Positions 28,522-56,319 of a DNA stretch of 64,000 nt are shown in pieces (position 1 is the stretch's first letter; the number at the start of each line of letters is the position of its first letter). Location: NCBI GenBank assembly GCA_020060185.1, contig JAGVAS010000056.1, forward strand, positions 3,734 through 67,733, given 5' to 3'. This DNA is from Desulfovibrio sp. (GTDB lineage: Bacteria; Bacillota; Dethiobacteria; DTU022; UBA8154). A program made the translations under genes and the position numbers. The notes below the pieces were generated by a model. The model worked only from the letters and a program-made list of their open reading frames with translations. It was not told the origin of the DNA and searched no databases.

Positions 28522-28536
28522 CTTCTTTCACCTCCC

Positions 28537-28914
28537 CTACCGGTGTAAAAAAAACACGCCTGCCAAGATCAGAGCAAGCCCTGCAACCTTGGACAATGTA
28601 ATATTTTCTTTAAAAAGCACCATCGAGAAAGTAAAAACAAGAATATAAGAAAGGCCGGCGCTCGGATAGGCCCTGCTGAGCTCCATGCCGCTAATAACCT
28701 TGATCCACAGGACCATGCTGGCAACAAAACAAAAGACCCCGAATAGCACCCACCCATTCGTGAATATCTCTAAAACTGAATAAGGCAGAGCCGTCCACTC
28801 CAGACTAAAATCCCCAAGCCTCCCCGCAGTATACTTTAACAGGATCTGCCCGCACGACCCCCCCAAAATAGAAAAAAGCATTAATGACAAGTCGCTTTTC
28901 AACCCATTTTCCAC
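28537..28914 (-). CDS. 4-TM EamA/SMR-like small membrane protein (ArnE/ArnF-type putative polyprenyl-P-sugar flippase), copy A
   Basis: 125 aa, four hydrophobic helices, GQILLKYTA motif; paralog of 44221..44586. Confidence 0.55.
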   Translation of the reverse strand: MENGLKSDLSLMLFSILGGSCGQILLKYTAGRLGDFSLEWTALPYSVLEIFTNGWVLFGVFCFVASMVLWIKVISGMELSRAYPSAGLSYILVFTFSMVLFKENITLSKVAGLALILAGVFFLHR

Positions 28915-30287
28915 CTCTGCTTCTTTTTAGTTTTCCCAGGAGAAAAAAACATAGTTTTCAGCGAAATGTGATAGGATCTTACCATCTCCTTAAGCTGGAT
29001 GACAGGGTTTTCCACCCTCCAGCTTTGAGGTTCCGTTAAAACCAGTATTATACCGGCTAATCTGAACCAGTACACGAGAAACCTGAAGAAAGGCAGGAAA
29101 AACAATATCCACCAGATTTTTTTCAGACCTTCCCGGTAAACCTCCGGAATAGCCCTGTAGTAGAAGAGCAGGCTGACGGCATCCAGGATAATATAACAGA
29201 AGAGGAGCACGGCCAATGAGAAGAAAACTGTCTGCAGGGCATAACCTATAAAATAGAGAAAAAAGATTAAAAATGTCCAGGAGAGGCGGGAAAGAGCCAG
29301 GGTATGGTCGGAGACAAACATACGGCCTAGATAATCCCACACTTTTATAGCTATACCCTTGCTCGCCGCCGAGTGAATGGCTATCGTTTCTATTTCCCCC
29401 CTCTGCCAGCGTGCCCTTTGTGAATACAGGCTTGCCAGGGAGCGGACCGGTTCAACGTAAGCGACGGCGTCCAGAACGCACCCCACACGGTACTTTTTAT
29501 TCTTAAAGGTCTTTTTAATTTGAAAGGTCAGGTCGGTATCTTCGGAAACAGTGCGCTCCTGGTACATGAAAGATTGCATGAGTACATCCCGCCGGAATGC
29601 AGAAAAGGCGCCGGAAAGGGTAAACAAAATGTTTTTTATGTTTTGATAACGCCGGCCTATATTAAAAGCGATCATATATTCTATGACTTCACAGAAGTTT
29701 ATAATATCCATGAAAGAAGAGCCTTTCCCCAGCTCCTTATCAACCCTGATAAACCCTGTAGCAGCAGCCAGCTTGCTATCTCCTTCAAAAGTCTGGACAA
29801 CCTTCAAGAGTGCGTCCTTATCCAGCCAGGTATCGGCGTCCACGTTTACAATATAAGCGCCGTGGCCTGAATAAATGCCGGCATTCAATGCTATTGACTT
29901 GCTGGCCCTGTCCAGAGACTTCCAGGCAACCAACAACTCGGGATGAGCGATTTGAAAGCGCTGGAAAACATCAAAGCTGTTGTCCCGGCTGCCGTTGTTA
30001 ACACAAATAACCTCTATTTTCTCCCGGGGATAGCTCTGCATATATATTGATTTCAGGCACTTGTAGAGGGTTTTTTCAGAATTGTAAACAGGAACGATAA
30101 CGGTTATATACGGTTGGTATTCCAGGGTGACCGGGTTTAAAAGTTGTTTTTCTTTCTTTGAGTGAAAATAAAGCCCCCAAAAGCAGTTTACGGCCGCAGC
30201 TACATCCACCAGGAGCGGAGCGAGCAGCCAGATACCCCAGTTAAGAATAAGGCGCAAAGAGTTTTCCCACAAGATCTCAGCGAACAT
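28899..30287 (-). CDS. processive GT2 beta-glycan synthase (D,D,D,QxxRW family; IcaA/PgaC/cellulose-synthase-like), copy A
   Basis: 462 aa; ITVIVPVYNSE, NVDADT, SEDTD, QRARWQRGEIE (QxxRW) with N- and C-terminal TM helices; about 80% identical to 45450..46850. Confidence 0.8.
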   Translation of the reverse strand: MFAEILWENSLRLILNWGIWLLAPLLVDVAAAVNCFWGLYFHSKKEKQLLNPVTLEYQPYITVIVPVYNSEKTLYKCLKSIYMQSYPREKIEVICVNNGSRDNSFDVFQRFQIAHPELLVAWKSLDRASKSIALNAGIYSGHGAYIVNVDADTWLDKDALLKVVQTFEGDSKLAAATGFIRVDKELGKGSSFMDIINFCEVIEYMIAFNIGRRYQNIKNILFTLSGAFSAFRRDVLMQSFMYQERTVSEDTDLTFQIKKTFKNKKYRVGCVLDAVAYVEPVRSLASLYSQRARWQRGEIETIAIHSAASKGIAIKVWDYLGRMFVSDHTLALSRLSWTFLIFFLYFIGYALQTVFFSLAVLLFCYIILDAVSLLFYYRAIPEVYREGLKKIWWILFFLPFFRFLVYWFRLAGIILVLTEPQSWRVENPVIQLKEMVRSYHISLKTMFFSPGKTKKKQRWKMG

Positions 30288-31493
30288 TTTCTACATTCTC
30301 CCTAACTTTTAGAAGCGTGGGCTGTGTTAAAACATACCAGTACAGCAAAATAATAAAGACGAAAAAGAAAAGCCGCCCGATGAGGGTATGGGCCACAAAG
30401 TTAAAGTTCCTGCCGCCGCTGTAAATAATGGCTATTACTATCATCATGCGCAGCATGTTAAAAAAGAGCAGGGCAATGATTCCCGCCAGAGAATAAAGAA
30501 TTTTCTTGATAAAACCGTACGCGGGGAAAAAGAAGAGCAACCCCAAAAAGACAGCGATTTCTAAGATAGCAGAGCTTTCTATATCTATATCAATGTAGTC
30601 CAGCTGTTGTCCATTTTTATAAATACCAAAATAGTCCCTGGCGCTTTATCAAAAACATAGGTTGTAATATCCACGTATTGCAATAAATGGTGCAGGACTA
30701 GGCCGGTCCAGTACTCAATGCGGTACTCGAGAAACGAACCCCGGAAAACCATGATGAAAAGGAATGTAAAACCTACCGCGCTCCAGATATAGTAAAAAAG
30801 CCAGATGCGGTGACGGTAGAGCACAACCGACCCCAAAAGCCAGAGCATAGCAAAAACCGTTATCTTTCCTCTGTCCCTTACCATAACAGGAAACGGCTTC
30901 CATTGAATATCTCCTTCTGAGGGCAGGCGGTCGCCTTTAACAGCAGCGCTGGAAAGGTAAAACCTGATGTATTGAGCAGGGTAAATGTGGAGGTCGGCCA
31001 TGGGAATACTAAATTCAAAGCAGCTGCCGCCGCTTATAGACCCTTCTCCCCAGTCCCCCTCGTAGGTAGAAAGCAGCTTTCCCTGTGACGAGTACAGCTC
31101 TACAAGCACTTCCCCTGTATCATGACCCGGCTTGTAAAGCACTTTTGCAAACTTATCAATGCCGTCATCATAGCTGCCGTTATCGTTAATGTCAAAAGAA
31201 AGCCTGCATACAAAACTGCTCCCTGTCTTAACCGGCTCAAACAGCTCTATCATAAAATACAGGTTTCTTTCGTTCTCTTTAGTCCCCCAGGACAGGGATT
31301 TAAGTTTCCTGCCGATCGAATCGTTATCTTTATAATCGGACAGGTAGGAAGCGCGCCCTTTCCAGTCGTCAAATTGCCCGTCCAGCCCAAATTTCTGCAT
31401 AAACCATGACCCGGGAGGCCACAATAGTATGACGGCCGCGCATAATACGGCGATGAAAAAATGAAACAGGCGCATATTATATCCCAGCTTCAC
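30277..31493 (-). pseudogene. frameshifted paralog of the 404 aa synthase-partner membrane protein (split into 302 aa + 89 aa ORFs)
   Basis: Versus the intact copy 46834..48048, copy A reads ..SWTTLI* where copy B reads ..SWTTIDIDIESSGILEIGVF..; a 1-nt deletion in the ATAGA(C/T)ATAGATAT run shifts the frame, and the C-terminal TM part continues in the +1 frame. Confidence 0.6.
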
Positions 31494-33184
31494 AGTTTTT
31501 TGCGCATGTAAAAAAGGCCGTACCCGAGGAACAGGAGGGAGATCATTGATAGCGCCGCTCCCCAGCGGTAAACAGGCGTTTTTTCCAGGTAGATTACTAT
31601 TTCGTGCTCACCGGCGGGGATGCTCAACCGCAGCAAATTTTCGTAAACTTTATAGGGCCAGGGCTCCCCATCCATCTCCACCCTCATTCCGTCCAGGGCA
31701 GCAACGGGAACGATTACGTCAACATCATTTTCAACCCGGCAGCTCATTACGTAACCATTTTCAGTGGCCTGATAATCGAGCAGAGGTATGAGCGAAACGG
31801 CAGTGAATTCTGACCTTAAAGCAAATATGTCTTTCAACAGCTCCTGGGCTACGGCATCCTTTGTAAGAAAGGCATGGTGGACCAAGTTCCCGCTCAGAAA
31901 ATGGATCTTCTTGTTTCCGACAAGCCTGTGCCCGTAAACGGGTGCGCTCATCCCGTAGTAATCAAATTCGAGTTCTACTTCGTCCAGTCCCTGGAGCGCG
32001 AAAGTTTTCCAGACCTCTATATCCTCCAAGGAAAAAGGATCCAGCTGGTATCTATCGCCTTTGCGTCCCACAAGGCTTAGCGGATCCCGGAGGAAAACCA
32101 TTTCGCCGTAGACCCCCAGGAATTCCGGCTGCTTTGCCAGAACGTCTTCCGGCATCCCCATAAGCTCGACGAACACCTGCCCTCCGGAAGCGGCGTAATC
32201 CAGGATAACCTGTTCCGCTCTTGCCTTGGACCTCCATTTTGCCCCGTATAGAATAACGCTGCTGTACCTGCGCAGGTCTTCAGGATCGTAGCTGTCAATG
32301 TAACTGGAAACACCCATTTCTACATCAGGAAAGTGCATGGCGATAGAAGGGGCATATTCACCGATTACGAGGCAGTCATCTTTCATCTCAACCAGGTAAG
32401 GCCTGTCGATACCGGCATGCCAGATGCTGATCCCGTCTATTGTTACGATGTGGCTGTATCCGGCATTCTCCGCTTCGAGGGAAAAAGTGTGCGGGTCCTT
32501 AATTACATCGTCCTTGACGAGCAGATCTGTCGCTCCCAGAAAAAGGCAGGAACGAAACAAAAAGGGATAATACTGGAATTCTAAACCCGTGTTGAGGAGC
32601 ATGATGTTATTGGAGGTGGTAGCGCCCTGCCAGGCCCATCCAAACACCTGCTCCCTGCCCGATGCTTCCACAAAAAGATAGGAAGGAGCTGAACCAAGCT
32701 GGCTTAAATCAATGGTAGCCACGCGCCAGCCGGGGGCAGCCTGTAACATCTCTGCGCTTTCCATCAAGTTATGCGCTCTCGCGCCGGTATGGGCAAGCAG
32801 GCGTACGGAAAAAAATGAGTCGAGTAAAAATGCCGCTGAAAGTATAATAACAATAACAATAACAGGCCCTGCTTTGCTAAAAGGAAATCGAAAAGGAAAA
32901 GCCCATTTTTTGACTGGAAAAAAAGCCAGGCTGGAAGCAATAATAGAGAGCGCCGCAAAGCCGGCAAAGTAATGCGGCCACAGCAGGTGGCTTAAAGGAA
33001 GAAGTAAATATAAAAGCCGTAGCGAAGGAAAAGTGAATACTATTAAGATTGCTCCGCAAATGGCCAGACTTTTGGCCCACGGCGGTTTTGAACGCCATGT
33101 CAAGATAATAAGGGGTAGGGCAAAAATAATGCTGATTCCCCAGTAAAAAGCCTCCCGGTCAGCAAAACGATAAAAAGGATCCAT
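31490..33184 (-). CDS. N-terminally truncated paralog of the PTPS-related polytopic membrane protein (copy A; corresponds to the C-terminal 564 aa of 48045..51506)
   Basis: 564 aa collinear with residues about 590-1153 of the 1153 aa protein (DPFYRFA.REAFYWGISIIF...VYRWGA.LS..SLL.LGYG.FY.RKKL). Confidence 0.6.
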   Translation of the reverse strand: MDPFYRFADREAFYWGISIIFALPLIILTWRSKPPWAKSLAICGAILIVFTFPSLRLLYLLLPLSHLLWPHYFAGFAALSIIASSLAFFPVKKWAFPFRFPFSKAGPVIVIVIILSAAFLLDSFFSVRLLAHTGARAHNLMESAEMLQAAPGWRVATIDLSQLGSAPSYLFVEASGREQVFGWAWQGATTSNNIMLLNTGLEFQYYPFLFRSCLFLGATDLLVKDDVIKDPHTFSLEAENAGYSHIVTIDGISIWHAGIDRPYLVEMKDDCLVIGEYAPSIAMHFPDVEMGVSSYIDSYDPEDLRRYSSVILYGAKWRSKARAEQVILDYAASGGQVFVELMGMPEDVLAKQPEFLGVYGEMVFLRDPLSLVGRKGDRYQLDPFSLEDIEVWKTFALQGLDEVELEFDYYGMSAPVYGHRLVGNKKIHFLSGNLVHHAFLTKDAVAQELLKDIFALRSEFTAVSLIPLLDYQATENGYVMSCRVENDVDVIVPVAALDGMRVEMDGEPWPYKVYENLLRLSIPAGEHEIVIYLEKTPVYRWGAALSMISLLFLGYGLFYMRKKL

Positions 33185-34190
33185 GGATATCGCTGGCTGA
33201 TACTGTCCAGGCCCAGATTTAGCTCGGAGAGGGCATCTTCCAGGCGGTTGTAAAAGTACATAGCCATGTTTTCCGCCGTGGGCTGGAAAATGTTAAAAGG
33301 ATGAAGCTCGTTCAATAAACTGTTTTCGTATTTCTCAAAAACAGACTTGATGCATTCCATAATGGGGCGAAAGGTATCAGCTCGTGCTCATTAGGAGGAA
33401 TACTGACCTTCACGTGGACCTGCCAGGAGTGAGCGTGAATTGGCCCGTCGTTTTCGTCCAGCGAAAAGCGGTGGCGAGCATTAAGAAAAGAAAACAGCCG
33501 GATGGAGTAAGTCTTGGGTTCAGCAAGCAGCTCCGGTCTTCCGTGCGGATAGACAATTACTCCTTCTTTGCCTGAGATTTCCGAATATCGTTCTGCTCCC
33601 TCTACGTCGTTTTTTTTGCTTTCATCCGCTCAAAATTTACTCCATATCTGCTACCTCATGGAGGCCAGTTCATTATTTAAACGGGCCATTTCGTCTTTAA
33701 TAATATTTGCTTCTATTTTTTTGGAGGCAGCAACAGCTTCGGCATCAACTATAATGCTCCGAGCTGAAAGATGATGCCTGGGCTAAAGCTCTCTTTTTCT
33801 TGACTGAAGCTCTGCTCTAGGGAACGTTGAATATTCAAAAAAAAGAATTCTTTGCAATTCGGAGGCATGCAGCCTGCACTTTTTTATCTTCTCCAGCAAC
33901 CCCTGCAGTTCTTCACGTAATTCATTTTCCTGCTGCTCTAAATGATGTTCAGGTCTTTCTTTAATAGAAATATAAATCTTCCCCTTATATTTGAGATCAT
34001 TTAAATTTTTCTTTAAAACGAGCTACTTTTTCCTTGAGGTTTAGCAGCTCCTGGTTCCTTTTCCTTAACTCATTTTCCGCTTCTTCAATTATTATCCTGG
34101 CGGTTGCCTGTGCTTCTTCTTCAATTTTCGTAGCCCTTTTTTGCGCTTCCCGAAAAACTTCGGCAATTAAATGGACCTAGCCCTTCTGGT
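33100..34190 (-). pseudogene. degraded remnants: QueD/PTPS-like domain fragment (33100..33360), DivIVA-like coiled-coil fragment and a divIVA gene fragment (about 33990..34190)
   Basis: 33100..33360 encodes ..HPFNIFQPTAENMAMYFYNRLEDAL (PTPS C-terminal motif). Nucleotides 33880-33960 match 51470-51580 and 33990-34170 match the divIVA gene 52020-52200 at high identity, but the reading frames are broken. Confidence 0.5.
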
Positions 34191-41519: not shown

Positions 41520-42386
41520 TTAAAGCTCTTCCTTCTCCCTTTTGGCCAGATGTTTGCCCCGCCAGATCAGCCATCCTGCAGCCAGAGCGGTGATAAGCCA
41601 ACCTGTGTTTACAGCGCTGCTCGAACCGTATCTCATACTGACAGCGTGCCTACCGGGCGGCAAAATTAACAGGACCAGGTTCTCATGTCTGTACGCGGTG
41701 ATGGGCTCACCATCAAGATAAACATGCCACCTAGGAGTATAGGTGACCGATATGATTACAGGTTGAGTTTCTAATGACTCATACTCGAACTCAACGCCCT
41801 TGTGATCCCAGCGCGTCCAAATAGTCTCGAAAGGCTCAGGGATTATTTCTTTTCGAGGCTTTCCAAGATCAAGAAGCGGTTCTAAAAGCCGGCGAGCTTC
41901 TTCTTTAAATTCAGGTTTAATGAGTCTTGGAATATGCAAGCCAGTAAAGTATATTTCTCCTTCCGGGATCTGCTTTACACCACAAACGGCATAAACACTT
42001 TTTTCTTCACCGAACACACCTTTTTCCTCGTCAAGGGTAAGCATTACTGAACCCAATTTTCTATAAACAGCACCTTGTCCTTCTTTTAAATGAATTAAAT
42101 GAATATCCATTTCGCTTTTATAAAAATTTGAACTCTCATCCGTGGGAACAAGGTTTACTACTCCGCTCACAGGCTTTTCAAAGCGCCACACATTAAATAT
42201 CTCCGGAATCGTGCCAGTTGCTGAAAGGTCCAGAATAACAGTTTTCCCTTTGTCTACCCACCTTTTAATACGCTTCTCCAGCTCTGCAATATTCAGTTCG
42301 GGGAGATCATACAGATAGATAACGTTAAAAAGATCGACGTATTCTTCATCATATTTCAGGGGGTTTGCCACCCTCCCCTCGGTCAC
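41520..42386 (-). CDS. C-terminal extracytoplasmic domain + TM anchor paralog of the PTPS-related membrane protein (3' part of a frameshift-split gene)
   Basis: 288 aa; NVIYLYDLPELNIAELEKRIKRWVDKGKTVILDLSATG parallels SVILYGAKWSSKTRAEQVILDYAASG in 48045..51506, and the C-terminus ..DGEPITAYRHENLVLLILPPGRHAV parallels ..NGEPWPYEIYENLLRLKIPAGDHEI. The ORF continues upstream without a start (..EEAAINYVARLFPWVTEG) to a stop in the +1 frame relative to 42412..44130. Confidence 0.6.
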   Translation of the reverse strand: MTEGRVANPLKYDEEYVDLFNVIYLYDLPELNIAELEKRIKRWVDKGKTVILDLSATGTIPEIFNVWRFEKPVSGVVNLVPTDESSNFYKSEMDIHLIHLKEGQGAVYRKLGSVMLTLDEEKGVFGEEKSVYAVCGVKQIPEGEIYFTGLHIPRLIKPEFKEEARRLLEPLLDLGKPRKEIIPEPFETIWTRWDHKGVEFEYESLETQPVIISVTYTPRWHVYLDGEPITAYRHENLVLLILPPGRHAVSMRYGSSSAVNTGWLITALAAGWLIWRGKHLAKREKEEL

Positions 42387-42411
42387 CCACGGAAAGAGCC
42401 GCGCTACGTAA

Positions 42412-44130
42412 TTAATAGCTGCTTCTTCCTATAACAAGCACGTCGGAATGCAGCTTCATGAAATAGGTGGAAGGGTGATCCGTAGTGACTACCACAGCAT
42501 CTTCATTTTGAGCCAGATACGACCAATCATTCAGGTAGAGATAATCCGACATACTCTGGAGAAAATCATAACCGCGGTCTAGAACAACTGCTCGTGTGTT
42601 CCACAAATACCAATTTCTCAGCATGTACTGATAATAGCCTTCATGGTAGGCGATGTTATGATTGACAAGGGTATAAGAATGAACAGTGCCTTCAATATTC
42701 CAACCAATTGAAGTGTTGAACCCATATTTAACCGGGAAAAAGGCCATTTCTCCACCCGAATGTGGGAGTTCTGCAGTAAGGCGACCCTTTTCAAACGGAT
42801 TTTTTCCGGTTGTCGGGACAGCATCAATAAGAAACCGTAATCTAGCATAGTCTGAAGGTGGGTTGAGAGGAACGAGGGGAGAAGATACAATAATGATTAT
42901 TACGATGACAATCGCAGGGACAATGCCAAGGGATTTCTTTATATCGGGATCTTTAAACCATCCGGTAAAAACTCTAGCAACCCCCTGAGCAAAAAAACTT
43001 ACCAGTATCGCCGCAGGGAGATCCGCAGCATGTAAAAAACGTAGAGGCACCAAGCTCTTTTCTCCCAGCGGCAAGAGCAAGTAAATTGGATTTTTCGGCC
43101 CTAAAGTTAAAGATGTTGTCACTACCCATACAACTACTAGCCCTAACCAGATAAAACGATCTTTATAAAAAAGAAACCCTAACAGTGCACCAAGAAGGGT
43201 TAGAAAAAAATAATAGAAATAAGGGGACCCAGGGTTTAAAAAAAAATCAACCGTAAGCATACTTTCGGCCCCCCGCGGCAGTGGCCAGGGAACACCCGGG
43301 GTTTCCCACTGGAAAACTCCTGGTACAGCCCAGAAGCCAGTCAAAGCTATACCTGTTAAAGCAGCTTCCGCAATTAAGATCAACCTTTTCCAATATAAAG
43401 GTAATTTCAGGCGCCAGATCATACAAAACAATACAACCCCGGCAAATTGTATATAAGCATGCATAGCATGAGTCATGGCCAGTAATGCCATATAAATGCA
43501 GGAGTATAGCCAGTTGCGGGTGCATGGTTTTTCGCATAAATTTATCATTTGCGCAAGTAAAAGGGGATAAAGAGGGAGAGAGAGCGCCCTTCCCAATGTT
43601 CCATCAATGAAAACTGACGAAAGGGTGTAATGACTGAGAGAGTACAGGAGTGCAGCATTTATTCCAACAACAACATCTCCACCCAGTTTCTTTGCAAGCT
43701 GGGCTGTAAAAAGGCCACCCAGGAAGAGGGATACCCAAGTAAACACTTTAAAAGTCATCATAATATTTCCAGTAAGAAGTTGTATAAAGGCGCCAACCCA
43801 TTTGCTTAAAGGAGGGTAGTACTGAACGAGGGTTGAGCCCATGTACCACTCCGGAAACCAATCGGAAAACTGCAGGTGACGCCAGCGCTCCGCCAGGTAC
43901 TCAACCTTGGTCAGGTGGCCCAACGTGTCAACGCCGGTTGGGAAAAGATCGTTAGAGGCACTTAAAATTGGCCACATGACAACAGTGCAGGCAATTGCTA
44001 TTATTGGTACTACATAGTGCCAGTATAGCACATCGGAGTTTAGTAAGGATTTATTACTCTTTAGCTCCCGTTTGTTAAATTGAACTGATAGATTTTTAGA
44101 AGCATCCATGGTAATTTTCTCCTGCTGCAT
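42412..44130 (-). CDS. polytopic membrane domain paralog of the PTPS-related membrane protein (5' part of the frameshift-split gene; lacks DivIVA and PTPS-like domains)
   Basis: 572 aa; SNDLFPTGVDTLGHLTKVEYLAERW parallels PWGSDAWGHLLKAEFLYEQ in 48045..51506; ends ..DVLVIGRSSY* exactly where the fused paralog continues ..DVLVIGEYAPTIALMF. Confidence 0.6.
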   Translation of the reverse strand: MQQEKITMDASKNLSVQFNKRELKSNKSLLNSDVLYWHYVVPIIAIACTVVMWPILSASNDLFPTGVDTLGHLTKVEYLAERWRHLQFSDWFPEWYMGSTLVQYYPPLSKWVGAFIQLLTGNIMMTFKVFTWVSLFLGGLFTAQLAKKLGGDVVVGINAALLYSLSHYTLSSVFIDGTLGRALSLPLYPLLLAQMINLCEKPCTRNWLYSCIYMALLAMTHAMHAYIQFAGVVLFCMIWRLKLPLYWKRLILIAEAALTGIALTGFWAVPGVFQWETPGVPWPLPRGAESMLTVDFFLNPGSPYFYYFFLTLLGALLGFLFYKDRFIWLGLVVVWVVTTSLTLGPKNPIYLLLPLGEKSLVPLRFLHAADLPAAILVSFFAQGVARVFTGWFKDPDIKKSLGIVPAIVIVIIIIVSSPLVPLNPPSDYARLRFLIDAVPTTGKNPFEKGRLTAELPHSGGEMAFFPVKYGFNTSIGWNIEGTVHSYTLVNHNIAYHEGYYQYMLRNWYLWNTRAVVLDRGYDFLQSMSDYLYLNDWSYLAQNEDAVVVTTDHPSTYFMKLHSDVLVIGRSSY

Positions 44131-44220: not shown

Positions 44221-44586
44221 TTACTGCTGTAGAAAAAAAACACCTATACTAACAAGGACCATTCCGATAACCTTTGTTAGAGTAACTGTTTCCTTAAAAA
44301 GTAAAACAGAAAATACAAATACAATAATATAAGATAAACTGATACTGGGGTAAGCTTTACTTAGTTCCATGGTCGATATTACTTTAATCCACAGGATCAT
44401 GCTTGCAACAAAAAAACAAATGCCAGTTATTATCCACGGGCTGCGGAAAATATTTAAAAGTGTAAAAGGAATCGCTGACCACTCCAGATTAATCTCACCC
44501 ATTCTCTCTGTTGCGTATTTCAGCAAGATTTGACCGGATGCCCCCAGGAAAATGGCAATAAATAGTAACATCAAACTGGATTTCAA
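44221..44586 (-). CDS. 4-TM EamA/SMR-like small membrane protein (putative lipid-linked sugar flippase), copy B
   Basis: 121 aa; paralog of 28537..28914 (ASGQILLKYA, KVISTMELSKAYP). Confidence 0.55.
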   Translation of the reverse strand: MKSSLMLLFIAIFLGASGQILLKYATERMGEINLEWSAIPFTLLNIFRSPWIITGICFFVASMILWIKVISTMELSKAYPSISLSYIIVFVFSVLLFKETVTLTKVIGMVLVSIGVFFLQQ

Positions 44587-44654
44587 ATGTTTTACCCCTT
44601 TCTGTTTTAGAAATATACAGCTACAGCAGAATTGTTTTTAAGACTGCTGCTATG

Positions 44655-45437
44655 TTAAGAAATCCGCAGCCCTTTTCCCAGCGGACATTTTTCTTTTGGG
44701 AGCGTGCACAGTTTGAGACTGTCACGTATTGTGGCTGCAATGCCAAGTTTACTGCGGCTTTTCTTGCGGTTGTACTGCAGCACCATGGGAACCTCACTTA
44801 TTTTCCGGCAAAGGGTTGCCAGCTTTAACAGAAGCTCAACAGTTGCCGAAAAGGTGCTGGACACCAGTAAGGAGCCATCAACTCTGTTACAGGCATTTTT
44901 TATCAGTTCTGCCCTGTAAGCACGAAAATTAACGGTGTAATCGCTTACGCCGGCAAGAGGAAAAATCAGGCCATAGTATTTCCTTGCCCCAAAGCTTAAA
45001 AGGCGGCGAAAAAAGGGGACCCCTACCTGCCCTCCACCCTTGGTGAAACGGGAGGCAATCGCTATTTCTGCTCCGTTCAGGACTGTCTTTACCAGAGCGC
45101 CGATGAGTTCGCCGGGGTGGGTGGCATCAGCGTCCATGGTCACGATACACGAAGCATTCATCCTTACGGCCTCGTAAAAACCCGTCAAGATAGCCTGTCC
45201 CAAGCCTTTATTTTCTGTATGAGACAGTATTGTAACCTTGGAATCAGCTTTTGCCCACTCTATAACTTTCTGCAGAGTTGCATCCCTGCTCCCGTCATTA
45301 ATGATAATTATGCGGTAATCGCATCCTTTAGGCAGTGATATGCCGCACTCAAACATGCTGCGCAGCGCCGGAACAGACAGCTCCTCGTTATACATGGGTA
45401 AAATTATAGCAACGAGTCTCTCTATCAACTTTATCAC
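44655..45437 (-). CDS. GT2 polyprenyl-phosphate glycosyltransferase (DPM1/ArnC-like), copy B
   Basis: 260 aa; same motifs as copy A. Confidence 0.8.
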   Translation of the reverse strand: MIKLIERLVAIILPMYNEELSVPALRSMFECGISLPKGCDYRIIIINDGSRDATLQKVIEWAKADSKVTILSHTENKGLGQAILTGFYEAVRMNASCIVTMDADATHPGELIGALVKTVLNGAEIAIASRFTKGGGQVGVPFFRRLLSFGARKYYGLIFPLAGVSDYTVNFRAYRAELIKNACNRVDGSLLVSSTFSATVELLLKLATLCRKISEVPMVLQYNRKKSRSKLGIAATIRDSLKLCTLPKEKCPLGKGLRIS

Positions 45438-45449
45438 CTCATTGACAAG

Positions 45450-46850
45450 TCAGTTTACAACCCGCTTTCCACCTTTGCTTATTTTAGATTTTCCGGGAGA
45501 GGTAAAGAGAGTTTTCAGTGAAAGATGATATTCTCTAAAAACATCCTTGAGCTGGGCAACAGGGTTTTCCACCCTCCAGCTTTTGGCTTCCGTTAAAACC
45601 AAGATTATCCCGGCCAGCCTGAACCAGTAAACGAGATACCTGAAAAAAGGAACTAAAAAAACTATCCACCAAATTTTTTTCACGTCTTTTTTGAAGTCTT
45701 CCGGACTGGCCCTGTAGTATACGAGCAGGCTGAGAGCATCCAAAAGAAAGTAGCAGAAAAAAAGTATGGCTATGAAGAAAAATACAGTTTGCAATGCATA
45801 ACCCAAGAAGTAGAGAAAAAAGATTAAAAATGTCCAGGTGAGCCGGGTGAGAGCCAGCGTATGATCAGTGAGGAACATACGGCCTATATAATCCCACAAT
45901 TTTAATGCCGGGCCCTTGCTCCCCGCCGAATGGATGGCCACTGTTTCTATTTCTCCCCGCTGCCAGCGCGCCCTTTGGGCATACAAGCTTGCAAGTGACT
46001 TGACTGGCTCAACGTAAGCAACTGAGTCCAAAATAGCTCCCACGCGGTATTTCTTTTGGGGAGAGACTTTTTTGATCTGAAAAGTCAGGTCGGTATCTTC
46101 GGACACGGTGCGCTCCTGGTACATGAATGACTGCATAAGTACATCCCGCCGGAATGCAGAGAAGGCGCCGGAGAGGGTAAACAGAGTGTTCTTAATGTCC
46201 TGGTAACGGCGGCCAATATTAAAAGCAAGCATATACTCTACGACTTCACAGTAGTTAATAATATCCATGAAGGAAAAACCTTTTCCCAGCTCTTTATCTA
46301 CCCTGATATAACCTGTCGCAGCAGCCAGTGTGCTGTCTTCTTCAAAAGTCCGGGCTACCTTCATAAGGGCTTCCTCGTCCAGCCAGGCGTCGGAATCCAC
46401 GTTTATAATATAAGTGCCTTGGGCTGAATAAATCCCCGCATTTAAAGCAATTGATTTGCTGGGCCTATTAAGGGAGATCCAGAGGGTATTAATTTCGGGG
46501 TGAGCAAATTGAAAGCGCTGAAAAACTTCAAAACTGTTGTCCTGGCTGCCGTTGTTGACACAGATAATCTGTATTTTTTCCTTTGGGTAGTTCTGCATAT
46601 AAATTGACTCCAGACATTTAAAAAGCGTTTTCTCGGAGTTGTAAACAGGAACAATAACGGTTATAAACGGCTGATGAAGCTCGCAGCTCAGCGGTGGGTC
46701 TTGTTTTTCTCTCTTCGAATGAACATAAAGGCCCCAAAAACAGTTTACTGCCGCGGATACATCCACCAGGAGCGGGGCAAGCAGCCAGATGCCCCAGAAA
46801 AGTATAAAACGAAGAGAAATATCCCATAAAACTTCAGGCATTTTCAACAT
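45450..46850 (-). CDS. processive GT2 beta-glycan synthase (QxxRW), copy B
   Basis: 466 aa; ITVIVPVYNSE, NVDSDAW, SEDTD, QRARWQRGEIE. Confidence 0.8.
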   Translation of the reverse strand: MLKMPEVLWDISLRFILFWGIWLLAPLLVDVSAAVNCFWGLYVHSKREKQDPPLSCELHQPFITVIVPVYNSEKTLFKCLESIYMQNYPKEKIQIICVNNGSQDNSFEVFQRFQFAHPEINTLWISLNRPSKSIALNAGIYSAQGTYIINVDSDAWLDEEALMKVARTFEEDSTLAAATGYIRVDKELGKGFSFMDIINYCEVVEYMLAFNIGRRYQDIKNTLFTLSGAFSAFRRDVLMQSFMYQERTVSEDTDLTFQIKKVSPQKKYRVGAILDSVAYVEPVKSLASLYAQRARWQRGEIETVAIHSAGSKGPALKLWDYIGRMFLTDHTLALTRLTWTFLIFFLYFLGYALQTVFFFIAILFFCYFLLDALSLLVYYRASPEDFKKDVKKIWWIVFLVPFFRYLVYWFRLAGIILVLTEAKSWRVENPVAQLKDVFREYHLSLKTLFTSPGKSKISKGGKRVVN

Positions 46851-48048
46851 CCTCCTTGACTCTTACCAATGTGGGCCGCGTCATGAGATGCCAGTAAATC
46901 AGCACAATAAAAAAGAAAAAGAGAATACGCCCAAACAGGGTATGGGCCAGAAAATTAAAATTCCTGCCGAAGCTGTAAATAATAGCTACAATTATCATCA
47001 AGCGCACCATGTTAAAAGAAAGCAGCGCAGCGACCCCTACCAATGAATAAAGAATTCTTTTGGAAAGCCTGCAGACAGGATAAAAGAGGATCAAGCCTAA
47101 AAAAACACCGATCTCCAGGATGCCTGAGCTTTCAATATCTATGTCTATTGTTGTCCAGCTTTCATCGATCTTGATAAACACCAGGATTGTGCCAGGAGCT
47201 TTATCAAAAACAAAGGTTATAATATCAAAATAATTCAGTAAATGGTGGAGAGCCAGGCCGGTCAGGTGCTCGATACGGTACTCTAGAAGCGAGCCACGGA
47301 AAAGCAGAATAAACAGGAAAGTAAAGCCTACCGCGCTCCATATGTAATAGAAAAGCCAGATACGGTGCCGGTATAGTATAAATGAACCTGTCAGCCAGCA
47401 CAGGGCCAGAAATGTTATCCATATCCTGTTCCTTACGACAACTGGAAATGGTTTCCATTGAATATCTCCTTCCGAGGGGATTCGGTCGTCTTGAAGAACG
47501 GCAGTGGAAAGATAAAACCTGATATACTGGGCGGGGTAGACATGGAGGTCGGCCATGGGAATACTAAATTCAAAGCAGCTGCCGCCGCTTATGGACCCTT
47601 CTCCCCAGTCCCCCTCGTAGGTAGAAAGCAGCTTTCCCTGTGACGAGTACAGCTCTACAAGCACTTCCCCTGTATCATAAGTCGGTTCATACAATACTTT
47701 CGCAAACTTGTCAATGGCGTTATTATAGCTGCCGTTATCGTTAATATCCAAATTAAGCCTGCACACATAGCTGCTCCCTTCTTTAACTGGCTCGCGCAGC
47801 TCTACCATGAAATAGAGGATTCTTTCATTTTCATTGGTTCCCCAGGACATTGATTTAAGTCTTCTGCTTTTTGAAGCGTCGTCTTTAAAGTCGATGTGGT
47901 AGGAAGTGCGCCCTTTCCAGTCGTCAAATTGCCCGTCCAGCCGTATTTTTTGTAGAAATAAAGACCCCGGGGGCCACAGTAATATTAGCGCCACACATAT
48001 TGCCGTTATGATAAAATAAAAAAGGCGCATATCAGATCCTAACCTCAC
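46834..48048 (-). CDS. membrane protein partner of the GT2 synthase: N-terminal TM + roughly 190 aa extracytoplasmic domain + C-terminal 6-TM domain; family unknown
   Basis: 404 aa intact; translationally coupled to the upstream (4-nt overlap) and downstream (17-nt overlap) genes; C-terminal FNMVRLMII...NFNFLAHTLFGR motif. Confidence 0.5.
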   Translation of the reverse strand: MRLGSDMRLFYFIITAICVALILLWPPGSLFLQKIRLDGQFDDWKGRTSYHIDFKDDASKSRRLKSMSWGTNENERILYFMVELREPVKEGSSYVCRLNLDINDNGSYNNAIDKFAKVLYEPTYDTGEVLVELYSSQGKLLSTYEGDWGEGSISGGSCFEFSIPMADLHVYPAQYIRFYLSTAVLQDDRIPSEGDIQWKPFPVVVRNRIWITFLALCWLTGSFILYRHRIWLFYYIWSAVGFTFLFILLFRGSLLEYRIEHLTGLALHHLLNYFDIITFVFDKAPGTILVFIKIDESWTTIDIDIESSGILEIGVFLGLILFYPVCRLSKRILYSLVGVAALLSFNMVRLMIIVAIIYSFGRNFNFLAHTLFGRILFFFFIVLIYWHLMTRPTLVRVKEDVENA

Positions 48049-51000
48049 AGTTTCTTACGAATGTAAAAAAAGCCGTATCCGAGACACAAAAGGGAAAGCA
48101 CGGATAGGACCGCTCCCCAGCGATAGACAGGCGGCCTTTCCAGGTAGATTATGATTTCATGATCGCCGGCGGGGATTTTCAGCCTCAGCAGGTTTTCATA
48201 AATTTCGTAAGGCCAGGGCTCCCCGTTTATCTTCACCTTCATCCCATCAAGGGCGGCGACGGGAACGATCACATCAACATCATTCTCGACGCTGCAGGTC
48301 ATTACATAACCGTCCTCGCTGGCCTGGTAATTGAGCAGCGGTATAAGCGAAACAGGAGCATATTCCGTCCTTAATGCGAAAATATCTTTCAGGAGCTCCA
48401 AGACCAGAGCATCCTTTGTTAAAAAGGTATGGTAGGGCAGGTTCCCGCCTAAAAAGTGGATTTTCCTGCTCTTTATCAGCCTGCTCCCGTAAACGGGCGC
48501 GCTCATCCCGAAATATTCAAATTCAAGCTCTACTTCATCCAACCCCTGAAGCACCCAGGCTTTCCAGACATCAATATCCTCGAGAAAAAAAGGCTCCAGA
48601 AGGTATCTTTCGCCTTTCCGCCCCATGAGTTCCAGCTGGCCCCGGAGAGTAACCAGCTCACCGTAAACTTCCAAAAACTCCGGCTGCCTGGCCAGTATAT
48701 CTTCCTGCATCCCGGTAAGCTCGACAAACACCTCTCCTCCAGAAGCGGCATAATCCAGGATTACCTGTTCCGCTCTTGTCTTGGAGGACCATTTTGCCCC
48801 GTACAGGATAACACTGCTGTACCTTTTCAGCTTTTCGGGGTCATAGCTGTCAATATAGGTAGAAACGCCCATCTCTACATTGGGAAACATCAGGGCGATC
48901 GTTGGAGCATACTCGCCGATGACAAGGACGTCATCCTGCACCTCAACCAGGTAGGGTATGTCGATACCGGCATGCCAGATGCTGATCCCGTCTATTGTTA
49001 CAATATGGCTGTATCCGGCTTTTTCCGCTTCAAATGAAAAAGCCTGCGGATCCTTGATTACATCGTCCTTTACAAGCAAATCGGTCGCCCCCAAAAGAAC
49101 ACACGACCGAAACAAAAAAGGATAATACTGGAATTCCAAACCCGTGTTAATGAGCATGATATTGGGGGAGGTGGTAGCGCCCTGCCAGGCCCACCCAAAT
49201 ACCTGCTCTCTTCCTGATTGTTCTGCAAAAAGATATGAAGGGGTGGAACCGAGCCTGCTTAAATCTATAGTTGCTACGCGCCAGCCCGGGGTTGCCTGTA
49301 ATATCTCTGCGCTCTCGATCAATTTAGGGGCTCTCGCGGAGGTATGGGCAAGCAGGCGCACGGAAAAAAAAGAGTCCATCAAAAATGCCGCTGAAAGCAT
49401 AATAACAACAACAGGCCCCGCTTTGCTAAAAGGAAATCGAAATGGAAAGGCCCATTTTTTGACTGGGGAAAAAGCCAGGCTGGAAGCAATAACAGAGAGT
49501 GCCGCAAAGCCGGCAAAGTAATGCGGCCACAGCAGGTGGCTTAAGGGAAGGAGTAAATATAAAAGCCGCAGTGAAGGAAAAGTGAATGCTATTAAGATTG
49601 CTCCGCAAATGGCCAGGCTTTTGGCCCACGGCGGTTTTGAACGCCAGGTCAAGATAATAAGGGTTAGGGCAAAAATAATGCTGATTCCCCAGTAAAAAGC
49701 CTCCCGGTTAGCAAAACGATAAAAGGGATCTAGAGATATCGCTGCCGGAATGAGATTTTCGACTACATAAGCTTTTACCGCCTCAGCGTTGATCCCGGTA
49801 ATACCGCCGACAAGGGCCGGCAGCAGCCACCACCCTGTCGAAAGAACTCCTATAGCAATTACCAAAACTCCTCTCGAAAAATCTCTTAGTCGGCAGCCGC
49901 TCAAGAACCAAAGGAAAAAAGCAAAAAGTCCCAGGGAGATAGAAAAAATCGCTCCAAACATGGCATGCGTGAGAATAACCCCGTGCAAAAGAGCGACAAA
50001 AATAATGATGTTGGAAAAAGACCTTTTTTCTTCAATTACTTTTAAAAAGAAGGCAAACAAAAGGGGCAGCAAAGCTGCGGCCAGAACACGGGGGAGGTTT
50101 CCTTCTGAGAAGGCAACACGCACGTTATCGATCCAAACGCTCCAGATTATACCCGCCAGCGTTGCCGCAAAAAGCCCTATGCGGTTGGCCCAAAAAAGCC
50201 ACGCCAGCCCTCCGCCAAGAGCACAGGCAAAAATAAAGTAATTTCCCGCCATGAAAATGTCAGCGCTGAAGGAACGCAACAAGGCCAACAAGTAATAAGG
50301 AAGAGGGGCCCAATAGCGAAAAGGTTGAACTCCGTTGTACCAATACTCAGTAAATTGGGGAAAATAGCTGCCTTTGAGGATCTGTTCGTACAGAAACTCT
50401 GCTTTCAAAAGATGCCCCCAGGCATCAGAACCCCACGGGTAATGAAGCCTGAATTGGGGCGTGAGAACATAATAATAGGCAAGGAAAGCCAGCAGGCTAA
50501 TTATCAGTGCGGATACGATATAATGGTGAACAGCATATCTGTAAAAAACCTGTCCGGAAAGTCTTTTGTCAGGTTGTTTGACAGGAATGGCATCCTTTAA
50601 ACCGTCCTCGACGGCAGTATCTGCTTTTAAACTGCTTTCGACGGCCGCGGCAATTTCCCTGCGGTAATCTGAACTTTCCGCACTTTCCCTGCTGCTTTCC
50701 GCCAGGGAATCAAGTGCGGTATTACGGTTGCTTACTTCTATTCCGCGGAGAGGCGTTTCCCAGAGACTAATACTGTCAAGCCCCAATTTTAACCCAGATA
50801 GTGCATCTTCCAGCCGGTTGTAAAAGTACATGGCCATATTCTCTGTCGTGGGTTGGAAAATATTGAAAGGATGAATTTCATTCAGAATTTTATCTTCATA
50901 TTGTCCAAAAACAGACTTGATACAATCTACAATGGTGGCAAAGGGTATTGGTTCATCATTTTCACTGGAAGGAATATCAACTTTCAAATGGACCTGCCAG

Positions 51001-51506
51001 GAGTGAGCATGAACCGGACCGGCTTTTTCGGTAAACGAAACATAATGGCGGGCATTAAGAAAAGAAACCAGCTGGATAGAGTAAGCCTTGGATTCAGCAA
51101 GGGGCTTCGGTTCCCAGGGGGAGGAGACAATTTCCTTTTTACTGCCTGAAATTTCTAATTCTGGCCCGATTTCCTCAGCCAATTGTTTATTTTGCTCTGC
51201 TGATACTTTGTTTAGAATTTCCCGTTCCATGGATGAAAGTTCGTTGTTTAACCGGGCGATTTCATCCTCAACAATCTGCAATTCTATTTTTTTTGAAGCA
51301 ACTATAGCTTCCGCTTCAGATATGATGCGCCGTGCCTTAGCCCGGGCATTATCTTCCATCTCTTTTGCCACCCTGATGCTTTGAGCAAGCGAACGCTGGA
51401 CATTTAAAAAATGGGATTCATTTGCAGCAATTATCGCCTTTAACTCGGTGACCTGCAGCTCGTACTTTTTTATCTTGCCCAGTAACCCCTGAAGTTCTTC
51501 GCGCAA
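48045..51506 (-). CDS. multidomain fusion: DivIVA-like coiled coil + QueD/6-pyruvoyl-tetrahydropterin-synthase-like domain + roughly 12-TM domain (PTPS-related membrane protein architecture) + C-terminal extracytoplasmic domain + TM anchor; putative GT-C-like glycosyltransferase
   Basis: 1153 aa. Residues about 1-110 are a coiled coil similar to DivIVA at 51897..52427. Residues about 150-250: FNARHYV..GPVHAHSWQV...LNEIHPFNIFQPTTENMAMYFYNRL aligns to QueD FEAAHRL..CGRLHGHSF...[20 protein letters not shown], keeping the His ligands but losing the catalytic Cys. After that come multiple TM helices and a soluble C-terminal domain. Confidence 0.7.
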   Translation of the reverse strand: MREELQGLLGKIKKYELQVTELKAIIAANESHFLNVQRSLAQSIRVAKEMEDNARAKARRIISEAEAIVASKKIELQIVEDEIARLNNELSSMEREILNKVSAEQNKQLAEEIGPELEISGSKKEIVSSPWEPKPLAESKAYSIQLVSFLNARHYVSFTEKAGPVHAHSWQVHLKVDIPSSENDEPIPFATIVDCIKSVFGQYEDKILNEIHPFNIFQPTTENMAMYFYNRLEDALSGLKLGLDSISLWETPLRGIEVSNRNTALDSLAESSRESAESSDYRREIAAAVESSLKADTAVEDGLKDAIPVKQPDKRLSGQVFYRYAVHHYIVSALIISLLAFLAYYYVLTPQFRLHYPWGSDAWGHLLKAEFLYEQILKGSYFPQFTEYWYNGVQPFRYWAPLPYYLLALLRSFSADIFMAGNYFIFACALGGGLAWLFWANRIGLFAATLAGIIWSVWIDNVRVAFSEGNLPRVLAAALLPLLFAFFLKVIEEKRSFSNIIIFVALLHGVILTHAMFGAIFSISLGLFAFFLWFLSGCRLRDFSRGVLVIAIGVLSTGWWLLPALVGGITGINAEAVKAYVVENLIPAAISLDPFYRFANREAFYWGISIIFALTLIILTWRSKPPWAKSLAICGAILIAFTFPSLRLLYLLLPLSHLLWPHYFAGFAALSVIASSLAFSPVKKWAFPFRFPFSKAGPVVVIMLSAAFLMDSFFSVRLLAHTSARAPKLIESAEILQATPGWRVATIDLSRLGSTPSYLFAEQSGREQVFGWAWQGATTSPNIMLINTGLEFQYYPFLFRSCVLLGATDLLVKDDVIKDPQAFSFEAEKAGYSHIVTIDGISIWHAGIDIPYLVEVQDDVLVIGEYAPTIALMFPNVEMGVSTYIDSYDPEKLKRYSSVILYGAKWSSKTRAEQVILDYAASGGEVFVELTGMQEDILARQPEFLEVYGELVTLRGQLELMGRKGERYLLEPFFLEDIDVWKAWVLQGLDEVELEFEYFGMSAPVYGSRLIKSRKIHFLGGNLPYHTFLTKDALVLELLKDIFALRTEYAPVSLIPLLNYQASEDGYVMTCSVENDVDVIVPVAALDGMKVKINGEPWPYEIYENLLRLKIPAGDHEIIIYLERPPVYRWGAVLSVLSLLCLGYGFFYIRKKL

Positions 51507-51896
51507 TTTAATTTCCAGGACCTCTAAATGGGGTTCGGCTTTTTCTCTAATAGAAATATAAATCTTTCCCTTCTTAAGACGTGTTCTATCTTATCTTTAT
51601 ATCTTTCAGTAATAGCTCACCTTAATCAGATAACTTTCACCATATCCATAAAACCTGAGTACAACGAAAAACACCAGAGCACATCTACTACCAATATATC
51701 AATGCGTTCAAGGTAGGATCCAGCTTTGTGGTAGTGTGATGATGTACGTTATCTATGGGTTTGAGGCAATAGAGCATCTGCTTCAATTTTGACGAATTGG
51801 ATACAAAGCTCGAACGCGCTGAGATAGATACTTATACCCTGGCTTGGTAATCATCTGTTACAACTTAAGTTTTATTATTTAAAGTGAATAATTAAT

Positions 51897-52427
51897 TCAG
51901 GGCAAACTGCCTCTTTCTTTATTCTTATCGTCAACAAGTTTGGGATAAAAAGAAACATCTCCGCTCAGATGCTCTGCTGTCACCGTTTCTAGAGAAAACC
52001 TGTACTTATCTAAAACCTTTTTAAATTCTTCTTTAAAATGAGCTACTTTTTCCCTCAGGTTTGTCAGTTCCTGGTTTCTTTTCTTTAACTCGTTTTCGCT
52101 TTCTTCAATTAACCTCCTGGCAGTTGCCCGCGCTTCTTCTTCAATTTGCGTCGCCCTTTTTTGCGCTTCCAAGAAAACTTCGGCAATTGTATGTTCCCTG
52201 GCAGTATATTCGTTTATCTTATTCCTTAACCCGTAAACTTCTTCTTCTGCTTTTTTTAATTCCTCTTTCTTTTTTTCAATCTCAAGCTGAAGAGCTGCTA
52301 TTGTGCTTTGATATTCGCTGTTAAGCTGCTTAATCTCACCTTCAACATCAGCTGGCTTAAAGCCAAAAAGCGATTTTCTGAACCTTCTTCCCATTTTCTC
52401 CCCTCCTTCAGAATATATTAATTTCAA
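51897..52427 (-). CDS. divIVA: DivIVA domain protein
   Basis: 176 aa; N-terminal RKSLFGFKPADVEGEIKQL followed by a long heptad-repeat coiled coil. Confidence 0.65.
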   Translation of the reverse strand: MKLIYSEGGEKMGRRFRKSLFGFKPADVEGEIKQLNSEYQSTIAALQLEIEKKKEELKKAEEEVYGLRNKINEYTAREHTIAEVFLEAQKRATQIEEEARATARRLIEESENELKKRNQELTNLREKVAHFKEEFKKVLDKYRFSLETVTAEHLSGDVSFYPKLVDDKNKERGSLP

Positions 52428-53228: not shown

Positions 53229-53238
53229 AACAGGTTAA

Positions 53239-56296: not shown

Positions 56297-56319
56297 CTGT
56301 ACGAAACATAAAGCTGTAT

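Follow-up and report, generated by a model that had tools for sequence, protein, structure and literature searches.

A PTPS-related GT-C membrane protein with a DivIVA-stalk-like coil in an XrtG exosortase cassette of Bacillota

The stretch of DNA considered here, referred to throughout as the window, comprises 64,000 nucleotides of contig JAGVAS010000056.1 (positions 3,734 to 67,733, forward strand) from assembly GCA_020060185.1, which is filed as Desulfovibrio sp. and placed by GTDB among the Dethiobacteria of the Bacillota; coordinates are counted from its first letter. On the minus strand, at 48045..51506 (stop codon included), the window carries an open reading frame (ORF) with a TTG start that encodes 1153 amino acids, hereafter the main protein. 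A preliminary description, made from the sequence without database searches, had read this ORF as a four-part fusion of a DivIVA-like coiled coil, a PTPS/QueD-like domain that has lost its catalytic Cys, a polytopic membrane domain and an outside domain, and all four parts were found in the analysis reported here. The main protein proved genuine and conserved, and it falls into the PTPS-related family that the databases already list. What the earlier reading missed is the defining context of the gene, an XrtG exosortase cassette: the PTPS-related GT-C protein is a core component of such cassettes, and the PTPS-like domain is its obligate partner, either fused to it or encoded separately.

An AlphaFold2 model built from 75 homologues (mean pLDDT 87.6, pTM 0.73) and profile matches together give the layout of the main protein, all of it encoded on the minus strand: a helix of 105 residues is followed by a domain of PTPS/QueD fold, a membrane domain of GT-C type and a domain on the outside, and the chain closes with an anchor at the C-terminus. 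Residues 1-105 (51192..51506) make up a predicted cytoplasmic coiled coil that resembles the stalk of DivIVA without the DivIVA head, modelled as one unbroken helix over residues 2-104 and followed by disorder at 101-136. The PTPS/QueD-fold (T-fold) domain of the TIGR03112 type comes next (residues 139-262, 50721..51092; an alpha/beta domain at 140-258 in the model), and behind it a flexible low-complexity linker (residues 263-320, 50547..50720), disordered with pLDDT below 50 between 277 and 315, ends in a basic stretch just ahead of the first transmembrane (TM) helix, TM1. The polytopic GT-C membrane domain occupies residues 321-720 (49347..50546; helical from 326 to 720 in the model) and the extracytoplasmic domain residues 721-1125 (48132..49346), within which a GIFT/ThuA/GATase1-like alpha/beta module is followed by beta-sandwiches (740-1122 in the model). 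The C-terminal TM anchor (residues 1126-1153 and the stop codon, 48045..48131), a modelled helix over 1126-1152 that is hydrophobic at 1131-1149, is followed by RKKL. Taken as a whole, the C-terminus (48045-48140, minus strand) reads ERPPVYRWG, TM helix, RKKL, which is the three-part layout of a CTERM sorting signal, and a TPxYxWG motif near the C-terminus is conserved in the family.

The N-terminus of the main protein is no longer than annotated, since an in-frame stop codon lies upstream of the ORF at 51593 and a homologue that is 78% identical (P0002) shares the start MREELQ; an extended N-terminus carrying a DivIVA head is excluded by the same stop codon. An unusually long spacer of 390 nt precedes the gene and prompted an Rfam scan of 41000-53500, which gave no match at E<=0.1. 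A scan for promoters and terminators returned a single good promoter-like site, at 52670-52642, upstream of the divIVA gene described below.

The membrane portion is identified by the Pfam family PTPS_related (PF10131), the full profile of which (positions 1-621 of 621) aligns with residues 396-1026 at 513.3 bits against a cut-off of 26.4 (E=1e-153). Together with PF01242 and TIGR03112, the latter over its cut-off, this match bears out the family named in the preliminary description. That the family has no assigned function also agrees with the searchable literature, in which no functional study was found, only family listings and transcriptome tables; a search by family name gave nothing beyond incidental table entries for C. 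acetobutylicum. Pfam lists PTPS_related in the GT-C clan CL0111 (PMC7801869), and a Foldseek search of the Protein Data Bank (PDB) with the model placed AftD, yeast and human STT3, AglB, ArnT, DPY19, AftA and PglB at the top, with E-values from 7e-11 to about 1e-5, in keeping with the GT-C-like membrane domain proposed earlier. Identity in the structural alignments to these solved GT-C enzymes is 8-13%, and a profile search of PDB sequences with the full-length alignment retrieved only PTPS/QueD proteins and no GT-C enzyme; some relatives carry precomputed matches to YfhO (PF09586).

As is characteristic of GT-C proteins, a polytopic N-terminal module is combined with a C-terminal domain on the outside. 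Asp361 and His365 are invariant in 75 sequences reaching down to about 28% identity, and they fall within the motif YPWGSDxWGHLxKAE, which the model places in the first outside loop, 13 residues past TM1; judged by sequence, this would be what one expects of a GT-C first-loop catalytic site. A second motif of acidic and basic residues, DNVRVAFSEGNLPR (residues 460-473), is almost invariant. The structural neighbours of the modelled outside domain include the GIFT domain of IFT52 (comparison value 12.2), the soluble part of AftD (12.0), the GH42 beta-galactosidase 3tts (11.7, by inspection through its non-catalytic domains B/C), ThuA-like proteins (11.6), OST48 (9.6) and the C-terminal domain of AglB (9.4), a set that appears consistent with glycan or acceptor binding and not with catalysis.

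The PTPS-like domain is matched by PF01242 (residues 150-259, E=3e-16) and by TIGR03112 (residues 147-255, 72.4 bits against a cut-off of 69.35), and its fold matches QueD and PTPS structures with TM-scores of 0.76-0.81. The Zn-ligand histidines and the PTxEN motif pointed out earlier are both present, as His154 (ARH), His166 and His168 (HAH) and Glu222 within PTTEN. Among relatives with a residue at the column, His154 is conserved in 66 of 66 and His166, His168, Glu222 and Glu250 in 68 of 68, and Asn209, Pro219 and Pro252 are likewise invariant in the 66-68 sequences that bear the domain. By alignment position, Glu222 and Glu250 correspond to what we take to be the ring-anchoring and second-base glutamates of PTPS/QueD. 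The loss of the catalytic Cys, also claimed earlier, is borne out by the alignment of KAGPVHAHSW in the main protein to KCGRLHGHSF in Pseudomonas aeruginosa QueD, which puts Ala162 at the position of that Cys; PDB entry 4ntk, reading KAGRLHGHSF, has the same Cys-to-Ala substitution. Position 162 varies across the family (Ala, Lys, Pro, Gln, Thr, Asp), and a Cys between His154 and His166 is found in none of the 68 relatives. Where QueD has LDHH, the main protein has YEDK and the family consensus YENT, so that the Asp-His pair is lost too. Read from these alignments, the domain appears to retain a metal site and two invariant glutamates without the residues for PTPS/QueD chemistry. T-fold enzymes are obligate oligomers, their active sites being formed between the subunits of trimers, and the domain is most likely a ligand-binding or oligomerising Zn-containing pseudo-enzyme and not a pterin synthase, that is, a fold re-purposed much as the preliminary description had argued. 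QueD and PTPS enzymes (COG0720) share with it the T-fold, the three Zn histidines, the PTxEN glutamate and the C-terminal WE.P glutamate, but keep the Cys and the Asp-His pair, in place of which the domain has Ala or another variable residue and no such pair; unlike them, it is always fused to a GT-C gene or encoded beside one.

The N-terminal coil had been taken for a DivIVA-type curvature or pole-targeting module, and this identification stands for the stalk only. Against the Pfam DivIVA profile (PF05103), the coil of the main protein scores 14.0 bits, short of the cut-off of 28 (E=0.05, profile positions 32-127). Over the homologous N-termini, DivIVA is nevertheless the commonest match, found at E<=0.01 in 15 of 39 and reaching 31 bits at best, although among the six with scores shown only P0013 (28.0 bits) and P0023 (31.2 bits) attain the cut-off. 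The matches begin at about position 24-32 of the 131-position profile. The lipid-binding head of DivIVA, established for the Bacillus subtilis protein, comprises about the first 25-60 residues, and since the coil matches cover only positions ~24-127, the head is missing. The coil would accordingly be a head-less DivIVA stalk that by itself could not sense membrane curvature or target poles. It shares with DivIVA the coiled-coil stalk with its E..A...A..I..EAE pattern; it differs in having no N-terminal lipid-binding head (~28 residues) and in being covalently joined to a putative integral membrane enzyme.

Directly upstream of the main gene, at 51897..52394 on the minus strand, lies a dedicated DivIVA paralogue of 165 amino acids counted from its ATG, with a visible ribosome-binding site and start codon, the head motif FRKSLFGFKPADVEGEI and a PF05103 score of 39.7 bits against 28. 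The resemblance between this adjacent product and the coil, noticed earlier, is weak pairwise (32% over 62 residues, E=2e-5) and clear by profile: an hhalign comparison of 39 fused coils with 17 adjoining DivIVA proteins gave a probability of 96.4% and E=1.3e-9 over 109 columns, the aligned DivIVA residues being 29-141. Among 7128 ORFs, hidden Markov models (HMMs) of the coil and of the DivIVA proteins cross-match only each other's proteins. A DivIVA gene stands directly upstream in 25 of the 29 loci in which a fused PTPS-like domain is preceded by at least 70 residues, in one of 18 loci with a short N-terminus (a truncated ORF) and in none of the 26 unfused loci. The coil is thus closely coupled to a dedicated DivIVA paralogue that carries the head. 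DivIVA-mediated spatial targeting, as suggested earlier, would not be achieved by the coil itself, which lacks the head, and would have to act through the upstream DivIVA. Both the similarity of the profiles and the co-occurrence would fit the origin by duplication and fusion that had also been proposed, although they do not prove it. In a metagenome-assembled genome of Dethiobacter, the single 7.4-kb contig of locus L008 has no separate DivIVA gene, and the ORF at 4246-7410 joins a genuine DivIVA head and first coil segment (MLNLFRKVFFGYKPDEIQ...ISREQS) straight to the PTPS domain; judged by its sequence, this arrangement looks like a deletion or recombination between the two homologous coils.

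Downstream, the gene at 46834..48048 (minus strand) overlaps the stop codon of the main gene and encodes a CTERM-type ecto-domain (residues ~35-205) fused in line to an XrtG exosortase (~211-397). The exosortase part scores 44.3 bits against 23 with TIGR04178; its match to TIGR03110 (E=9e-26) falls short in this fused form, with 90.9 bits where the cut-off is 102.75. The N-terminal half is a weak match to the Firmicu-CTERM substrate model TIGR04145, and its residues 35-205 are 42% identical to a free-standing protein of 261 amino acids at another locus (L003; compare 13482-14845 there). The junction keeps a complete sorting signal, composed of GDIQWKPFP, a TM helix and YRHR. The in-line fusion of this putative substrate and its exosortase, which recurs in L001, L002, L005-L007 and others, suggests from its sequence that processing may occur in cis.

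The remaining genes of the cassette follow on the same strand. A processive GT2 synthase of the XrtG-associated TIGR03111 type (45450..46850), similar to PgaC, IcaA and NodC, scores 374.4 bits against 363.95 (PgaC_IcaA, E=4.5e-38). A GT2 protein of the polyprenyl-phosphate-sugar-synthase type (44655..45437), DPM1/ArnC/PgfS-like, belongs to PF00535 and matches the NCBIfam models PgfS, ArnC and PpgS under their cut-offs, and a small ArnE/ArnF-like flippase with four TM helices (44221..44586) is matched by ArnF at E=5.8e-19 and by EamA; these are the three neighbours named in the preliminary description, and all were recovered. At 41520..44130 there is a second PTPS_related GT-C paralogue without a PTPS domain (PF10131, E=7e-48, on 42412-44130; C-terminal-domain HMM on 41520-42386), which keeps the D..GHL.K.E motif. 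A frameshift of 1 nt near 42415-42430 splits it into ORFs of 572 and 288 amino acids: the first ends VLVIGRSSY*, and the frame of the second, upstream of its GTG start, reads ...INYVARLFPWVTEG, matching VLVIGEYAPTIALMFPNVEMG of the main protein. The split could reflect a pseudogene, a sequencing error or programmed frameshifting.

The constancy of this arrangement was surveyed in 76 loci from species-representative genomes, plus four obtained by exact look-up, with HMMs built from the window's own modules; presence counts for the synthase, XrtG, the GT2 protein and the flippase refer to the 52 loci with at least 5 kb downstream. Over 78 loci the order is PTPS-like domain, GT-C domain, CTERM-type ecto-domain (here called subs), XrtG and TIGR03111-like synthase; it holds in the Bacillota (Peptococcaceae, Dethiobacter, Syntrophomonadaceae, Clostridium, Wukongibacter, Symbiobacterium) and in the Chloroflexota (Anaerolineae, Herpetosiphonaceae, Oscillochloris). 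All 52 loci have both the synthase and XrtG (a separate gene in 51, a fusion in one), and the DPM1-like GT2 (26/52), the flippase (16/52) and a second GT-C protein (11/52) are facultative. In 23 of the 26 unfused loci a stand-alone PTPS-like gene, equally Cys-less, lies immediately upstream; the N-terminal extensions of such genes in the Chloroflexota contained no Pfam domain. In 38 loci the subs domain stands alone and terminates in QW(S/A)P-x-P, a TM helix and a basic cluster; 27 loci, the window among them, have it joined to the N-terminus of XrtG, three chloroflexotal loci (L052, L055, L058) have it attached to the GT-C protein at the C-terminal end of the latter, and in one (L019) GT-C, subs and XrtG form a single ORF. 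It can be argued from these alternative fusions that the PTPS-like module, the GT-C protein, the ecto-domain and XrtG act together physically.

From the observed domain identities, folds, residue conservation and gene linkage we infer an enzymatic activity, a donor, an acceptor, a role for the PTPS-like domain and a pairing of the coil with DivIVA, which would combine as follows. The main protein is probably a GT-C membrane glycosyltransferase of the XrtG cassette that builds a cell-surface glycoconjugate or exopolysaccharide. Its N-terminal 320 residues would lie in the cytoplasm, given the basic residues before TM1, the C-terminal RKKL after the last TM helix and the general topology of GT-C proteins. 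The outward-facing Asp361 and His365 in the loop after TM1 would catalyse sugar transfer from a polyprenyl-phosphate carrier, for which, in the window, the DPM1-like GT2 would plausibly be the source and the ArnE/F-like protein the flippase; CsbB/GtcA/YfhO and related systems are an established precedent for a scheme in which a GT-A C55-P-sugar synthase and a small flippase supply a GT-C protein (PMC8035078). The large outside domain, with its GIFT/ThuA-like and beta-sandwich parts, would bind the acceptor, which is most likely the polymer that the neighbouring PgaC-like TIGR03111 synthase extrudes, with the CTERM-type ecto-domain protein processed by XrtG as the main alternative in view of the oligosaccharyltransferase (OST)-like structural neighbours and the GT-C-subs fusions. 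The PTPS-like domain would act as an obligatory cytoplasmic partner, supplied in other phyla by the separate upstream gene, and the coil would pair with the DivIVA paralogue encoded directly upstream, clustering or positioning the machine.

Several explanations compete with this reading or with its premises. That the long ORF is an artefact of assembly or annotation joining unrelated genes has a practically negligible probability: the TTG start and the 390-nt spacer are the only features that could raise the question, and support for it was not found, whereas more than 50 homologues of 1100-1230 amino acids with identical domain order come from independent assemblies, including the isolate Desulforamulus profundi, and the model is confident throughout its folded parts. 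An assembly chimera, which the preliminary description had named as a possible refutation, is thus contradicted by the same full-length architecture in dozens of independent assemblies; the isolate Syntrophomonas wolfei carries the main gene as well, read there as two adjoining ORFs of 940 and 225 amino acids. It is also very improbable that the PTPS-like domain is a working QueD or PTPS enzyme of a pterin or 7-deazaguanine pathway, merely tethered to a membrane protein. The significant PF01242 match, the conserved Zn histidines and two glutamates and the shared fold would suit such an enzyme, but a working QueD is excluded by the active-site residues, with Ala162 for the catalytic Cys, no Cys in the 68 relatives and the Asp-His segment replaced. 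Moreover, the domain falls far under the cut-off of the QueD model TIGR03367 (36.8 against 89.25) and of TIGR00039 (14.5 against 125.5). The signatures of the functional COG0720 subfamilies PTPS-I, -II and -III, namely CxxxHGH, CxxxxxHGH and ExxHGH (PMC5041015), are all missing from the main protein; in its segment E-K-A-G-P-V-H-A-H, Ala takes the place of the Cys and Gly that of the Glu. Neither queC nor queE nor folE appears in the Pfam gene tables of the four loci L001-L004 or among the cassette-flanking ORFs of the window, the loci to which this search was confined.

Less easily set aside, if still unlikely, is an OST-like activity, in which the GT-C protein would glycosylate the adjacent CTERM-type protein before or while XrtG cleaves its C-terminal anchor, and no polysaccharide would be decorated; the structural matches fail to distinguish GT-C enzymes acting on proteins (OST, PMT) from those acting on polymers or lipids (ArnT, Aft). 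A distinctly unlikely explanation is that the main protein is a non-enzymatic scaffold, or an export and assembly platform for the synthase and the exosortase, with an inactive GT-C fold. Half of the loci have no lipid-sugar synthase or flippase nearby, and the coil and T-fold modules, T-fold enzymes being obligate oligomers, suggest assembly over catalysis; against this, Asp361, His365 and the 460-473 motif stay invariant or nearly so down to about 28% identity, as is typical of an active site, and the second paralogue keeps the same D..GHL.K.E motif. There are, to be sure, further points that weigh against the glycosyltransferase reading as proposed above. The glycosyltransferase activity of PF10131 proteins is itself only presumptive; the DPM1-like GT2 is found in only 26 and the flippase in only 16 of the 52 loci; and where a second GT-C paralogue is present, that paralogue might complete the three-component module instead. 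With regard to the coil, the loci that bear it lie, judged by their record titles, largely within related Bacillota (Peptococcaceae, Dethiobacter, Syntrophomonadaceae), and its co-occurrence with DivIVA may represent a single or a few evolutionary events and not repeated selection; profile comparisons between coiled coils can be inflated by composition, and the main protein's own coil falls short of the Pfam threshold.

The glycosyltransferase reading can be carried one step further, to a proposal that is tentative and rather unlikely to hold: the Cys-less T-fold might serve as a cytoplasmic small-molecule sensor that gates the GT-C protein across the membrane, and the coil might dock the dedicated DivIVA so as to hold the machine (XrtG, synthase and GT-C protein) at poles or septa. 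Judged by the conserved Zn site and the ring-anchoring glutamates, the ligand might be a pterin or a nucleotide of the guanine type. If true, the machine would be the first exosortase or exopolysaccharide apparatus to be positioned by DivIVA, and the T-fold the first pseudo-PTPS domain with a regulatory role. That a nucleotide controls the locus is made plausible, though not demonstrated, by the many cyclic di-GMP genes of the window, which lie around the cassettes on the minus strand (24919-26139, 34177-34695, 53239-54270 and 60874-63414); the set comprises an EAL-HDOD protein, a PilZ protein, an HD-GYP response regulator (HHEKFDGTGYP) and an unusual protein of 846 amino acids combining SelA-like, PAS, GGDEF and HD-GYP domains. 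Ahead of the HD-GYP response regulator, at 54275-58848, come two sensor histidine kinases with several domains each (assigned by eye). The PilZ and EAL proteins had no counterpart in the other loci surveyed; proteins with some similarity to the HD-GYP response regulator occur near several cassettes (e.g. L002, L008, L049, L071).

About 15 kb from the first cassette, HMM and Pfam matches and a reading of the sequence revealed a decayed second copy of the whole cassette (27748..34190, minus strand). It begins with a remnant of the C-terminal half of DivIVA (about 34010-34190), followed by a main gene that carries frameshifts and has lost about 1 kb internally, which brings the end of the PTPS domain up against GT-C residue ~592; a PTPS fragment remains at 33100-33360, and the C-terminal half of the GT-C protein at 31490-33184 has 82% amino acid identity to the main gene. 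The subs-XrtG gene is broken (30585-31493 and 30277-30546), and the synthase (28899-30287, 77% amino acid identity to that of the first cassette), the flippase (28537-28914) and the DPM1-like GT2 (27748-28521) are intact. Exactly where the 5' end of this copy breaks off, a stretch from 34000 to 38000 has a G+C content of 0.36-0.38, against 0.43-0.57 elsewhere, and holds the PilZ gene and PIN-domain ORFs (36693-37091, 37414-37803); it may be an insertion that disrupted the decayed copy. On the plus strand, at 38495-41059, lies the gene for an 854-amino-acid protein with an N-terminal hydrophobic segment, for which no Pfam, NCBIfam or PDB sequence match was found; fragments of it (26825-27809, plus strand) stand beside the decayed copy, and homologues adjoin the cassette in at least eight other loci (L001, L002, L006, L007, L026, L039, L041, L045). 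It may be an accessory enzyme, conceivably a glycan hydrolase.

The relation of this locus to known systems can be drawn on several levels. The names and consecutive numbers of the models TIGR03110-03112 suggest that they describe the XrtG cassette, and the main fusion is therefore a catalogued architecture and not a new one. With the TIGR03112 type it has in common the succession of PTPS-like, polytopic and outside domains and the XrtG and TIGR03111 neighbours; what the present clade adds is the DivIVA-like coil of ~100 residues, the dedicated upstream DivIVA gene and the fusion of a CTERM ecto-domain to XrtG. With the YfhO/GtlB/GacL-type GT-C proteins of CsbB-GtcA-YfhO systems it shares a polytopic GT-C protein with a large outside domain, and in the window also a GT-A synthase and a small flippase (PMC8035078). 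The main protein nevertheless belongs to another Pfam family, has an obligatory cytoplasmic PTPS-like partner and always comes with an exosortase and a processive synthase, and the lipid-sugar synthase and flippase are facultative. To AglB, STT3, PglB, ArnT, AftA and AftD there is no detectable sequence similarity, and the structural identity is the 8-13% given above.

Already catalogued, then, are the PF10131 family, which appears to have been named after its association with PTPS, the PTPS-like fusion and the XrtG context, and close homologues are named accordingly by NCBI. In the searchable papers XrtG systems are represented only by family models and by a single case of up-regulated transcripts, from a Lactiplantibacillus plantarum strain that self-aggregates (PMC12854382); XrtG is without mention in the 2006 PEP-CTERM paper and the 2023 myxosortase preprint, and a paper containing both 'exosortase' and 'DivIVA' was not found in the searchable literature. 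The coil with its DivIVA and the subs-XrtG fusion appear in no family name or description returned by the database searches, nor in the searchable papers. As far as could be searched, the head-less DivIVA stalk with its dedicated partner, the in-line fusion of substrate and exosortase and the quantitative picture of the cassette are undescribed.

Since family and architecture were already catalogued, the gain is incremental and does not amount to a new class of system. What had been an anonymous fusion protein nonetheless yields useful hypotheses, open to testing, about a little-known system of surface assembly, and in one group of related Bacillota the machine has gained a DivIVA stalk together with a DivIVA protein of its own.

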